Shown: positions 60,923-64,000 of the stretch, in pieces | How the letters are laid out: every line of letters begins with the position of its first letter | Numbering within the stretch: the first letter of the stretch is position 1 | From: Escherichia phage vB_EcoM_G8 | Sequence record: NC_054915.1 | Direction: 5' to 3' (one strand) | DNA length: 64,000 nt | The notes under the pieces: model-generated | Seen by the model: only the letters and a program-made list of their open reading frames with translations | Told to the model about the DNA's origin: nothing | Database searches by the model: none | Position numbers and translations under genes: made by a program

Positions 60923-61100
60923 CTAAACGAATAGGTTCATGAATGCCATATCCCTGAACAGAAATTTCTGTCGTAGGATAAATTCCATCAATATCACCCA
61001 TATTCCACGCTTCGTTAAATTGCTGTTCGCCTGAATTACTAAACCATTCGGCGAAAGCATTTAGCACATCTTCAGAACCTTCAATAATTATCTTTGCCAT
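60879..61100 (-). CDS. hypothetical small acidic protein
   Basis: 73-aa ORF. Confidence 0.5.
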   Translation of the reverse strand: MAKIIIEGSEDVLNAFAEWFSNSGEQQFNEAWNMGDIDGIYPTTEISVQGYGIHEPIRLVEYDLCTGEEVKYD

Positions 61101-61462
61101 TACAAACTCTCGGTAAAGGTACGAGCGATAACGTCGCGCTGCTGTTCCGGAGTCAGAGAGTTAAAGCGAACTGCATAACCGGATACACGGATGGTCAGCT
61201 GCGGATATTTTTCCGGATGCTTAACTGCATCTTCCAGAGTTTCACGACGCAGAACGTTAACGTTCAGGTGTTGACCACCTTCAATTTTAACTGTAGGCTG
61301 TTGCTCAATTTCAATTTCACGGGCATGCAAACCATAGAAAATTTCTGGGTCTACAAAAGAGTCCTCTTTAAAGGTTTTAGAGACAATAATTCGTGCTTGA
61401 ATACCATCTTCAAAATAAATAGTACCTTTATGTGTGCCTTCAAGAATTTGATATGCTTTCAT
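61100..61462 (-). CDS. autonomous glycyl radical cofactor (GrcA/YfiD-like; T4 Y06I-type)
   Basis: 120-aa ORF; C-terminal 60 aa ...[59 protein letters not shown] matches remembered E. coli GrcA and PFL glycyl-radical domain. Confidence 0.9.
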
Positions 61463-61469
61463 ATAAACC

Positions 61470-61850
61470 TCAATTAGAAAATAAATTTATCCAAGATTGT
61501 TCTTTAATTAAAAATGGCTCAGAATCATATGCCATTAAACTCTGTGTGATTAGTCCTTTAAAAGGCCCATCAATAAATTCCATGGTAAAATATGGAATTT
61601 TATTCATTAGCCGTGCATTAGGAGCAGTACATAAAACTCTGCATCCTTTGAATACACCTTTTTGTAATTTGTATTGCTTGGGATAAAATTCGCTCAAAAT
61701 GTTATTATTTGCTAAAATTTCAAAATGATTCACCAATTTATTTTTAATAGTTTTTGGCGAAAAATAAAGATATTCGAAAAGCTGAGTGTCTGTCATCATT
61801 GCATTCCGATTACGAAAAACTGTGGACGAGTAATACCACCAATACAACAT
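61470..61850 (-). CDS. hypothetical protein
   Basis: 126-aa ORF. Confidence 0.5.
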
Positions 61851-62338
61851 TTAATATTACAGCAGCAGCAGTGTACAGTGTCAATATGGACACTATAAAT
61901 CTTATCCATATCAGGAGATTTGACAGGCTCATCAATTATATACAAAATTCGCGAAAGCGATAAACCTCTGAACTTGCTTCCTTTATTACCAATAAAACTG
62001 CGTACAGAATCAGTAAATAAACGAAAACGTATATCATCATTAGAATAACGCGAAAATTCCTTTTTAATGTTATTTGCAGAAATTTTAGCGTAAGCTGAAG
62101 TATTAGAAAGAACAATAACTGTTCCGCCATCATACAACCAATTAGCAGCAAAGTTAGTCACAGCAATTGATTTACCGGATTGACGTCCACCGTCTAGTCG
62201 AAGTGTGCAATACTGTTTAAGTAAGTCTTCAAATGGCGGGATATATTCGTTTTTACAAATTTCTTCTACTCTAGCATCAGAATGGTGTGTAAAAGCATTC
62301 ATCAGGGATAGATAAGGACCAGTTAAAAATGTTCTCAT
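61796..62338 (-). CDS. hypothetical protein with P-loop-like GGRQSGKS and C-terminal CCCC cluster
   Basis: 180-aa ORF. Confidence 0.5.
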   Translation of the reverse strand: MRTFLTGPYLSLMNAFTHHSDARVEEICKNEYIPPFEDLLKQYCTLRLDGGRQSGKSIAVTNFAANWLYDGGTVIVLSNTSAYAKISANNIKKEFSRYSNDDIRFRLFTDSVRSFIGNKGSKFRGLSLSRILYIIDEPVKSPDMDKIYSVHIDTVHCCCCNIKCCIGGITRPQFFVIGMQ

Positions 62339-62503
62339 TTCTTCTCTCTAAATTTGGGCCATTCCGTGGCGCATGAATTGTCCATTTCTGTATTTACCCA
62401 TTACCGCACTTGGGCTCGACCTTATTACAGGTTGGCGGGAATCCCTCATAGAATCATGAGGTCCAGGTTGTTCCCATTTTATTTGAATGTAAATAGGTCT
62501 GAG
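62339..62503 (-). other. GC-rich structured intergenic region (nested stem: GGGAA...CCUCAU-loop-AUGAGG...UUCCC)
   Basis: read directly; no ORF on minus strand; composition contrasts with AT-rich flanks. Confidence 0.5.
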
Positions 62504-63082
62504 TTAGGAATTACGGGCTGCATTAGCAACGGCGTAAGCGTACTGGACATTAGCGTCTTTAAACGTACCTTTAGAGGTATCTATTTCTGCCTTAAAGCCG
62601 CCTTTAGCCATAACATCGGCAAATTCTTTACGGAAAGCCATTGCATCAAGACCTTTCCATGATGATTTATGCTTGGCAAATTCAAGACCAGCGTAGTTGA
62701 CAGCCTTAGCTAATTTATTATCAATAACCCATTTACCGGCTTTAGGCACAAACTTCGGGCCTTTTTGTTTAGAGAACAGTTTTAAATTCCAGCGACGAAG
62801 GTCACTGTCGGCTTTAACAAAAGCTGCGTCTAAGTTACTAGCAACAACATCTTCAATATGGGCAAATTTAAGTCCGTCAACTTCAATATTTAGATCGTTA
62901 CGCCAGCGAAGTCCTTCCCAAGCGAAGGCTTTAAAGTCGGAAGCCTTTGTAGCTAAGTACCGTTCAATAGGAGCTGTTTTAGGGTCAAAGCCGTTTCCCG
63001 ATCGGTAGGTCCACTCATCTTTATTAATGCCTTTGGCCTTTACTATAGAAGCTTCGGCAATAAATTCTTGATAGGTTTTCAT
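62504..63082 (-). CDS. internal protein, IPIII-like, with N-terminal capsid targeting sequence
   Basis: 192-aa ORF starting MKTYQEFIAEA (CTS shared by T4 internal proteins). Confidence 0.75.
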   Translation of the reverse strand: MKTYQEFIAEASIVKAKGINKDEWTYRSGNGFDPKTAPIERYLATKASDFKAFAWEGLRWRNDLNIEVDGLKFAHIEDVVASNLDAAFVKADSDLRRWNLKLFSKQKGPKFVPKAGKWVIDNKLAKAVNYAGLEFAKHKSSWKGLDAMAFRKEFADVMAKGGFKAEIDTSKGTFKDANVQYAYAVANAARNS

Positions 63083-63143
63083 GTGTTTCCTTGTTTGTTT
63101 TGATAGAGTAATTATACCATATTAATACTTAAGCGTAAACCGT

Positions 63144-63404
63144 TTAAGCTTTACTGCCAGAAATAATTCCGAAGTTGTTAAAATCATATCCAATATCGTC
63201 AACATCTACTTTAGGACTTGCTACAACATAAGCAATTTCACTACGTTTTGCACAGGTGTTGATTTCTTTACCATCGCCACCTAAGAAAGAATACCCATTA
63301 CGTTTTAATGAGCCAAAGTCTTCCGCATCACCAATGAAAGCTTTAACTTTAAATTTAGAACCTCTGGCATCTGCTTCAACGATAAATTCTTGATACATTT
63401 TCAT
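63144..63404 (-). CDS. internal protein with capsid targeting sequence
   Basis: 86-aa ORF starting MKMYQEFIVEA. Confidence 0.7.
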   Translation of the reverse strand: MKMYQEFIVEADARGSKFKVKAFIGDAEDFGSLKRNGYSFLGGDGKEINTCAKRSEIAYVVASPKVDVDDIGYDFNNFGIISGSKA

Positions 63405-63573: not shown

Positions 63574-63855
63574 CTATTTTTCTGAAGCGCCTGAAATATA
63601 TTTTTCAAGACGTTGTTTCATCAGTGAGCCGTTCTTAGCGATTTCTTCCGGTTTATCGCACATACGCAACAAGGCTTCAAGCTTAACGATATCACTGGTG
63701 CGCTCAAATTTGCGAGTATCTATCTTACTAGCAAGTTCAGAAATACGTGCTAATAGACTTTCAGCTTCAACCAAAGCTGCACCTAGCTTAGTTGCAAATG
63801 TGTCAGTAGCTTCGTTAAGAATAGATTCTGATAAAAATTCACTATATGTTTTCAT
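63574..63855 (-). CDS. internal protein with capsid targeting sequence
   Basis: 93-aa ORF from [11 protein letters not shown]; ATGA overlap with stop of gene e. Confidence 0.65.
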
Positions 63856-64000
63856 ATATACGCTTTCCAAGTTCCTGTTTTAAATGTTGAGATTACGCGT
63901 TTCGCGCGATTAGGTGTCTGACGATACCATTTAGATTGGGCTAGATTTACTGCTGCTTCATCCCAGCGTTTTTGTTGGAGCATACGTAAAGAATTAGTAA
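63852..64000 (-). CDS. e: lysozyme e, C-terminal 49 codons (gene continues beyond window end)
   Basis: translation ...[47 protein letters not shown] matches remembered T4 lysozyme C-terminus. Confidence 0.85.

Follow-up and report, generated by a model that had tools for sequence, protein, structure and literature searches.

A predicted pseudoknotted non-coding RNA between ipIII and vs.8 of T4-like phages, with relatives in other virulent phages

Non-coding phage RNAs of about 80 to 140 nt with no assigned function are encoded in or beside tRNA clusters, as exemplified by rnaC and rnaD of phage T4 ("species 1 and 2") and by sRNA1 and sRNA2 of phage PAK_P3 (PMC4933390). T4-type phages also carry promoter-early/stem-loop (PeSL) cassettes, in which a T4 early promoter is joined to a stem-loop (PMC2839356, PMC4122927). 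Here, we describe a structured element of 120 nt (GGGAACAACCUGG...GGAAUGGCCC) at positions 62356-62475, minus strand, of a 64,000-nt stretch of Escherichia phage vB_EcoM_G8 (NC_054915.1), referred to as the window. Its base pairs were checked in the sequence, and it forms a conserved block in two alignments (A1 and A2). It occupies a 165-nt gap (62339-62503) bounded by the stop codon of an ipIII homolog and the ATG of a vs.8 homolog; its T4 counterpart lies around 64,813-64,935 of that genome. Unlike the T4 and PAK_P3 RNAs, T4-like copies of the element lie outside the tRNA cluster. We found no sequence similarity to T4 rnaC or rnaD, and PAK_P3 sRNA1 and sRNA2 were rejected as homologs, as their sequences lack the core of the element.

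Comparative sequence evidence makes it highly probable that the minus strand from 62475 to 62356 is a conserved, structured, non-coding RNA. We lean slightly toward a fuller reading, in which this conserved pseudoknotted RNA is part of the ipIII-to-vs.8 message and serves as a trans-acting small stable RNA. Action in trans as a stable RNA, taken by itself, is a proposal that we hold tentatively.

The structure of the window element, whose dot-bracket representation and coordinates were verified base by base, reads as follows along the minus strand. Helix P1a pairs GGGAA (62471-62475) with UUCCC (62437-62441), both strands having been checked in the sequence. Within P1 are an internal loop (CAACCUGGA), whose CUG (62464-62466) is the 5′ strand of a pseudoknot, and the inner hairpin P1b (CCUCAU-GAUUCU-AUGAGG, 62444-62461; inverted repeat I2). 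The 3′ strand of the pseudoknot is CAG (62388-62390); the pairs were checked, and the homologous columns covary. Helix P3 pairs CCA (62433-62435) with UGG (62398-62400), pairs that were likewise checked and that are present in A3, which aligns 51 distinct cores drawn from every phage group and from which the model was built. P3 closes a three-way junction that holds hairpin P2 (ACCU-GUAAUA-AGGU, 62419-62432; paired in 51 of 51 A3 cores) and the invariant strands CGAGC...GCGGUAA. The junction sequence (CGAGCC-CAAGU-GCGGUAA, 62401-62418) is variable in its middle; CGAGC and G-GGUAA are invariant in A3, and Klebsiella phage KpCHEMY26, which is outside A3, has CAAGC in place of CGAGC. A 3′ extension (AAAUGGAC..., 62356-62387) is conserved in 47 of 47 T4-like sequences, is absent from the other phage families, and ends in a small hairpin (GCC-ACGGAAU-GGC, 62358-62370; 98.8% paired). 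Within the extension, the T4-like sequences of group F (loci L076, L113, L115, L127, and L174) carry an additional inserted hairpin that itself covaries (CUAGC/GCUAG, CCACC/GGUGG, and CCAUC/GAUGG) and is flanked by AUCAG/CUGAU.

Compensatory changes occur throughout P1. The P1a stem of the window is replaced by GGGAG/CUCCC in VR5, GGGG/CCCC in the rV5-like Vequintavirus naswa, GGAAC/GUUCC in L040, GAGGG/CCCUC in the 45-kb coliphage Ivi, and GAAUGU/ACAUUC in Pseudomonas phage PsgM04F. In type B it is AAAGGC/GCCUUU, one pair of which appears as GC in 18 sequences, CG in nine, and AU in one. P1b is CCUUAU/AUAAGG in L047, a C-G to U-A replacement, and contains a U·G pair in L002 and L046. Within T4-like phages, P1 pairs 5-52 and 14-50 covary. 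The sequence of P1 thus differs from group to group, with at least nine distinct closing stems, yet it is always a hairpin ending 0 to 5 nt 5′ of P3.

P3 varies in a similarly compensated manner. Among the 51 cores, pair 12-45, formed by the base 5′ of P2 and the base 3′ of GGUAA, is AU in 29, UA in nine, UG in eight, and CG in four, with one unpaired; pair 11-46 is CG in 40 and UG in five. The entire helix is exchanged in group F (CUGGU/A(G)CCAG) and in Ivi (GCG/CGC). P2 is nearly invariant, and its single double-compensatory change in the 51 cores is that of Pseudomonas phage KIL1 (GCCA/UGGU).

Given 28 T4-like sequences, RNAalifold returned, unprompted, a long-range helix of 3 bp in which the 5′ internal loop of P1 pairs with a segment 7 to 8 nt after P3. 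The pairing holds in all 28 sequences, as CCG/CGG, CAC/GUG, CGC/GCG, or CUG/CAG, with CG13/AU7/GC5/UA3 at one pair and GC16/CG12 at another. The window carries the version that is itself invariant, CUG/CAG; group F has the block CAACCUGGACC as well, which anchors these nucleotides as homologous to the covarying columns. Covariation thus establishes the predicted pseudoknot for T4-like phages. At the equivalent positions of other groups, the segments CCAG/CUGG, AGGG/CCCU, CGGA/UCCG, CUCCGG/CCGGAG, AAACCA/UGGUUU, and AUAGCA/UGCUAU are complementary, and a pseudoknot is plausible there as well. The 6-bp helices of Ivi, L109, and KIL1 (L137) each have a p value of about 0.03 to 0.11.

Pairing across the whole structure was compared with two kinds of control. 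In A3, 88.5% of cells are paired, versus 80.3% in shuffled alignments (none of 500 shuffles reached the observed value), and sliding the partners lowered the fraction. In A4, which comprises 28 T4-like sequences of types B and F and for which the full structure was counted, 96.4% of cells are paired, versus 87.1% in shuffles and 29 to 45% with slid partners; the covariation score is 0.245, versus 0.077 in shuffles. The initial annotation, made from the window sequence alone, had named covariance across related phages as a means of checking a nested stem in the gap, and absence of conserved pairing among the outcomes that would refute its reading; the compensatory changes in P1, P3, and the pseudoknot contradict that outcome. 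Because the many U·G pairs of A3 and A4 (UG14, UG10, and UG8, for example) would be A·C mismatches if read on the plus strand, we assign the RNA to the minus strand.

Three further candidate helices were considered. An alternative junction hairpin (GCCC/GGGU) is contradicted by uncompensated C-to-G changes in several lineages. A GUAA/UUAC helix proposed by RNAalifold is invariant, is absent from the type of the window, and clashes with the covarying P3. A candidate helix between the junction (GYGCG) and the 3′ domain (UGYGC) exhibits only transitions opposite G and is not transferable to other groups.

We next consider coding potential, since T4 vs.8 (L004 3254-3913; NC_000866 64,253-64,912) is annotated as a 219-residue protein starting at AUGAGGG inside P1b, and a 33-codon open reading frame (ORF) at 62348-62449 (minus strand) is annotated in Escherichia phage vB_Eco-B1.1. 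In the window, the frame is open through the element except for a single in-frame TAG (62348-62350, identified by translation), which separates the upstream open frame from the vs.8 ATG and closes the T4-type vs.8 frame 9 nt ahead of that ATG, at 62338. In W143 and PST, the stretch between the conserved block and the vs.8 ATG has frame-changing indels of 1, 5, and 9 nt, and a 1-nt deletion falls in the most conserved segment of KP179, L036, L042, L051, and L167. Among T4-like phages, the start codon is inconsistent or lacking, in many of them the open frame extends just 0 to 4 codons upstream of the vs.8 ATG, and the nucleotide sequence is nearly identical across phage families that share no such protein. 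The TAG, the frame-breaking indels, the core deletions, and the lack of a conserved start codon indicate that the element is non-coding. That it encodes the N-terminal 39 codons of Vs.8 or a separate 33-residue peptide therefore has a probability close to nil; no continuous conserved reading frame supports the N-terminal extension. The T4 vs.8 start is very probably overextended by 39 codons, judging from these alignments, and the true start would be ATGAGAACA, giving a product of about 180 residues. The 33-codon ORF is therefore, on the same comparisons, not a gene. The description of the gap in the initial annotation as free of ORFs holds only approximately, as this short ORF does lie within it.

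Matches to the 165-nt gap occur in 1030 phage records, and in 541 of these they span 80% or more of the gap. Directly upstream of vs.8, 10 to 30 nt from its start, T4-like phages always have a block of about 120 to 135 nt, whereas the gene preceding the block varies: ipIII in the window, ipII in W143, ipIV in PST, denV in T4, and further genes for internal proteins in VR20, S16, and KP179. A core of about 40 nt (CCUGUAAUAAGGUCGAGCC.AAG.GCGGUAAUGG) matches phages outside the T4 group (rV5-like and Pseudomonas phages) at 93 to 95% identity, and a BLAST search from naswa alone recovers the T4-like copies. In naswa, the core lies about 100 nt upstream of the gene preceding the tRNA cluster; in PsgM04F, it lies within the tRNA array; in KIL1, between tRNA-Met and tRNA-Arg; and in KpCHEMY26, which is N4-like, in a 1-kb non-coding stretch after the tRNA array. 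Ivi also has the core, and further copies occur in viral and metagenomic contigs. Copies in or beside tRNA arrays are on the same strand as the tRNAs, and no protein gene is a constant neighbor across phage families. The element had no match in 5,426 Escherichia coli genomes, and the core pattern had none in representative genomes of 185,579 species. This comparison of sequences shows the predicted RNA family to be present in several unrelated groups of virulent gamma-proteobacterial phages.

Some genomes depart from the single-copy arrangement. Klebsiella phage PKO111 has two copies (L031 668-823 and 1190-1350) that flank an internal-protein gene, and tandem copies occur in L127 (9016-9185) and L115 (5087-5255), with greater divergence in the second copy (44.1 and 29.8 bits). 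In Escherichia phage Pu-Krd-SF5 (L033 1145-1280), P1, P2, and P3, the 5′ two-thirds of the element, have been lost and a T4 early-promoter cassette (GTTTAC...TATATT) stands in their place; only the 3′ extension before vs.8 is retained, a pattern that BLAST also identifies in AV114 and LF82-8. The rV5-like copies (L005 1425-1460; L040, L045, and L056) have a conserved motif, CCCYUAGAGGGCUUGAWAGUGC, 5′ of the element, which is repeated 3′ in the L040 group.

Such rearrangements bear on the idea that the element is a DNA-level module boundary, a conserved recombination anchor through which hypervariable internal-protein genes are shuffled in the manner of PeSL cassettes. Homology between T4-like genomes breaks exactly at the 5′ edge of the element, the PKO111 copies flank an internal-protein gene, an early-promoter cassette replaces the 5′ part in Pu-Krd-SF5, and PeSL cassettes are described as mediating such shuffling in T4-type phages (PMC2839356, PMC4122927). 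Both are conserved intergenic stem-loop structures at the edge of a hyperplastic region and tied to gene shuffling. Unlike a PeSL, however, the element contains no early promoter (such cassettes lie outside it in W143, PKO111, and Pu-Krd-SF5), has a complex covarying fold, and is conserved far beyond T4-type phages, including phages without an internal-protein locus. Selection acts on the pairing of the RNA, as the compensatory changes and the G·U pairs of one strand demonstrate. We therefore regard a recombination anchor as very improbable; service as an anchor of homology may be a side effect of conservation.

To delineate the family, a covariance model of the core (R1) was built, with the window sequence in its seed alignment. 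In the window, R1 has a single match (62387-62444, minus strand; 74.2 bits, E = 7.7e-18). KpCHEMY26 (L175) and Ivi (L176), both outside the seed, score about 55 bits (E of about 1e-12), whereas chance matches from a 14-nt pattern search score at most 24.6 bits. The pattern CGAGCCNNNGNGCGGTAA alone yields mostly chance matches in viral contigs, which were filtered by context and R1. The window element has the features of the family: P2 and the invariant junction within P3, a compensatory P3, a variable P1, and the T4-like pseudoknot. An Rfam search, also suggested in the initial annotation, gave no match in the gap at E values up to 10 among the 4227 covariance models of Rfam 15, nor was there a match at the homologous sites of L005, L006, L007, L040, L074, L175, and L176. 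ARAGORN identified no tRNA or transfer-messenger RNA (tmRNA) at the element in the window or at the other loci checked, and no cloverleaf or tRNA-like domain is present. Literature searches on vs.8, T4 small RNAs, phage structured-RNA catalogs, and HIDEN-SEQ gave no description of the element, although it may be an unnamed entry in a bulk catalog (PMC10690425, for instance). The element is thus apparently a member of an undescribed, horizontally shared family of small phage RNAs, new in the sense of having no Rfam 15 match and no description in the literature searched.

The surroundings of the element in other phages suggest how it might be produced. In L045, an rV5-related contig, the element is part of a unit of about 170 nt that has near-consensus promoter-like sites (11/12 and 10/12 matches) at either side, and in naswa and Ivi a promoter-like site lies directly 3′ of it. 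In KpCHEMY26 and L150, the element is inside long inverted repeats (AGUGCUCUU..GUUGUGA / UCACAAC..AAGAGCAUU), whose 7-bp inner closing stem recurs across group E copies and which, by analogy, are reminiscent of the stems at which rRNAs are processed. The context in other phages, with its promoter-like sites, tRNA arrays, and bracketing repeats, suggests that there may be a discrete small transcript. Because of the promoter-like flanks, the bracketing repeats, duplication and loss, and the lack of a constant protein neighbor, we favor a self-contained, accessory RNA that would act in trans. In this T4-type phage, it would be transcribed within the ipIII-to-vs.8 message, fold independently of translation, and have a trans-acting role as a small stable RNA. 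Its P2 loop, together with the invariant junction, would form a recognition surface for a conserved cellular or defense factor tied to tRNA or translation metabolism, with P1 and the pseudoknot serving only as scaffold, and the 3′ extension specific to T4-like phages may in addition couple the element to vs.8 expression.

In N4-like and related non-coding arrays (L175 2490-2640 and 2700-2730; L150, L124, and L074), each RNA module is bracketed by AGUGCUCUUuuCGUUGUGA ... UCACAAC..UAAGAGCAUU, and the 5′ arm contains UGCUCUUU, matching the start of the rrn boxA consensus. From their sequence, these repeats may mark RNase III-type processing stems, antitermination signals, or both.

Several results weigh against this reading of the element as a pseudoknotted, stable, trans-acting RNA. 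The attributes "stable" and "trans-acting" are drawn from genomic context, and more than 1000 T4-like genomes keep the element fixed beside vs.8, which also fits a role in cis. Classical gels of T4 stable RNA reportedly showed only the tRNAs plus species 1 and 2, so the T4 RNA may not accumulate. Outside T4-like phages, single pseudoknot helices of 3 to 4 bp are no better than chance, and the case there rests on positional consistency. In A4, the shuffle test is nonsignificant for two of five measures, namely, changes on both sides of a pair (101 of 500 shuffles) and further pair types (305 of 500), and the shuffle control is itself inflated by the relatedness of the sequences. Since that control ignores kinship, the stronger arguments come from the slid controls and from the number of different pair types. 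In the gap taken as a single sequence, a perfect nested hairpin of 5 + 6 bp arises in 116 of 2000 shuffles (5.8%), the minimum free energy is no better than that of shuffles on either strand (z = +0.29 and -0.09), and the folding stability of subconstructs is likewise the same as that of shuffles.

The nested hairpin was the starting point of the initial annotation, which had correctly placed a 165-nt gap downstream of the ipIII-like gene, as the ends of the flanking coding sequences show. The stem it described (GGGAA...CCUCAU-loop-AUGAGG...UUCCC) is present, its pairs were checked, and its inner arms are at 62444-62449 and 62456-62461. Also borne out is the unusual composition of the gap, with a G+C content of 43.6% (50.8% in the 120-nt element) compared with 34.3% in the window; only 1.7% of 165-nt windows reach the value of the gap. 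The hairpin by itself is within chance expectation and is weak as single-sequence evidence; the feature rises above chance because it is conserved and covaries across phages. The hairpin makes up only the 5′ quarter of the element, and the best-conserved part (62401-62432, comprising P2 and the CGAGC...GCGGUAA junction) lies downstream of it. A chance hairpin, or an intrinsic terminator on the plus strand formed by the stem and the following AUUUUAUUU, would agree with these single-sequence statistics and with the T-rich run after the plus-strand stem in the window. However, that run is absent from T4 and PST, covariation and G·U pairs favor the minus strand, and a scan of 61700-63200 detected no terminator-like site, the combination of a G+C-rich hairpin and a U-tract being absent. 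The comparative data already contradict this explanation, which is barely credible. A promoter scan of 62339-62503 gave no promoter-like site. The initial annotation proposed that the gap encodes a small RNA, a site of RNase processing, or an element bound by protein; the results support a functional structured RNA in general, which may have any of these three roles.

The constant position in T4-like phages is also what a cis-acting 5′ leader of vs.8 would produce, whether a riboswitch-like aptamer, a translational operator, or an mRNA-stabilizing fold controlling vs.8, vs.7, and vs.6 (GrcA). The element is always 10 to 30 nt upstream of the vs.8 start, and its 3′ extension, whose terminal hairpin immediately precedes the ribosome-binding region, outlasts the deletion of P1 to P3. 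The topology resembles that of the ZTP (pfl motif) riboswitch (RF01750), in which the internal loop of the first hairpin likewise forms a pseudoknot with a tail after the second subdomain, and a pfl-like GrcA gene lies downstream. However, the element lacks the ZTP consensus nucleotides, a covariance-model match, and an expression platform; it matches no Rfam riboswitch model at E values up to 10, and neither a terminator nor an alternative anti-Shine–Dalgarno pairing was found. In other phage families, it is not a 5′ untranslated region: no vs.8 homolog lies downstream, and a promoter-like site, tRNA, or bracketing stem is found directly 3′ of it. We consider a cis-acting leader unlikely.

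Catalysis is a further possibility, with the element processing polycistronic or tRNA-array transcripts as a self-cleaving RNA. The strand order, P1a - pseudoknot strand - P1b - P1a′ - domain - pseudoknot strand′, is the compact nested double pseudoknot of HDV-like ribozymes, about 15 junction nucleotides are invariant, and the element is sited between cistrons and within tRNA arrays, where RNA is processed. HDV-like ribozymes, though, have a P1 of 6 to 7 bp starting from a G·U pair and a 3-bp P3 with L3/P1.1. P1 of the element has 4 to 6 bp and starts with G-C or A-U (G-C in the GGGAA/UUCCC of the window), its inner helix has at least 6 bp rather than 3 (P1b of the window has 6), and no P1.1 or catalytic C is assignable. 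Moreover, P1b is missing altogether from the group E copies and from types such as those of PsgM04F, KpCHEMY26, and Ivi, no Rfam ribozyme family matches, and the sequence reveals no cleavage site. A catalytic RNA is thus quite improbable.

Like tmRNA and tRNA-like RNAs, the element is rich in pseudoknots and is found near tRNA genes, but it has neither a tRNA-like domain nor a tag reading frame. The P2 loop has the consensus G-U-R-R-N-A; GUAAAA, GUGAAA, GUAGAA, GUAGCA, GUAACA, and AUAAUA occur besides the GUAAUA of the window (62423-62428). In all seven loop variants, positions 2 to 4 are UAA, UAG, or UGA and never a sense triplet. This pattern, which recalls the stop-codon loop of tmRNA helix 5, is compatible with a stop-codon-like signal of that kind and equally with a UNR U-turn. 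Three resemblances to ribosomal and transfer RNA were considered. The hexaloop of 23S rRNA helix 44 (GTPase-associated center) has the same six bases as the window P2 loop, GUAAUA; mimicry of this center was rejected, as the overall alignment to 23S rRNA scores 17, below the shuffle average of 20.3, and homologs differ in the loop. Mimicry of the 16S 530-loop, with which GCGGUAAU is shared, and of the anticodon loop of tRNA-Tyr (CUGUAA) was noted by eye; both resemblances are weakened because the matching positions vary in homologs, and they are leads only.

Two observations concern translation-related genes near copies of the element. In L080 (9535-9610), an array with an element copy whose P2 loop is GUAGAA includes a phage tRNA with anticodon CUA, of the amber-suppressor type (tRNA-Pyl according to ARAGORN). 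In KpCHEMY26 (L175 2960-3090, MN163281), a subthreshold match to permuted tmRNA (RF04321; 33.7 bits versus a gathering threshold of 47) aligns with GCA AAC GAU GAU GUU GUU CUG AUG GCU GCU UAA, which would encode the tag ANDDVVLMAA, and a T-arm-like sequence (UAGGUUCAACUCCUAAACCA) lies about 70 nt upstream; ARAGORN makes no call. We regard the region as a candidate two-piece tmRNA of this N4-like phage.

Few viruses have been studied as thoroughly as T4, yet its copy of the element is unannotated, inside a gene whose start is very probably misplaced. A core that is nearly identical across T4-like, rV5-like, N4-like, and Pseudomonas phages yet absent from bacterial genomes suggests strong selection for an interaction common to the hosts. 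Repeated siting among tRNA genes, in one phage with a candidate tmRNA as well, points to translation, tRNA metabolism, or tRNA-targeting immunity, all of which are active questions in phage–host conflict. More speculatively, the element may represent an undescribed class of small pseudoknotted phage RNAs, present in T4 too and exchanged among at least five unrelated virulent lineages, which would be part of a tRNA/tmRNA toolkit and act as a decoy or sponge for a conserved host translation, tRNA, or defense factor, or as a new ribozyme or aptamer. The analysis provides an RNA with defined helices, targets for compensatory mutation, and natural deletion and duplication variants, together with a corrected T4 vs.8 gene model and a covariance model with which to annotate more than 1000 genomes.

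The window is a segment of a Tequatrovirus (T4-like) genome, and 62200-62650, used as a 451-nt query, is 100% identical to vB_Eco-B1.1. Every gene near the gap is on the minus strand, in the order e (lysozyme), three small internal-protein-like ORFs, the ipIII homolog (62504-63082, 192 residues), the 165-nt gap, the vs.8 homolog (61796-62338, 180 residues), vs.7, and vs.6, continuing to regB; both flanking genes are outside the RNA. ARAGORN identified no tRNA gene in the 64-kb window, and no Pfam domain was identified on Vs.8, Vs.7, or the rV5-type downstream protein. Between e and ipIII, the window lacks denV and ipII and contains two extra small ORFs (63144-63404 and 63574-63870, minus strand), both starting with MK(T/M)Y(Q/S)EF. 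From this start motif, which resembles a capsid-targeting signal, both probably encode further internal proteins belonging to this hypervariable locus. The vs.6 homolog, at 61100-61462 (minus strand), has a C terminus that presumably resembles that of E. coli GrcA/YfiD, the autonomous glycyl-radical cofactor, and the homologous gene of related phages is annotated GrcA.

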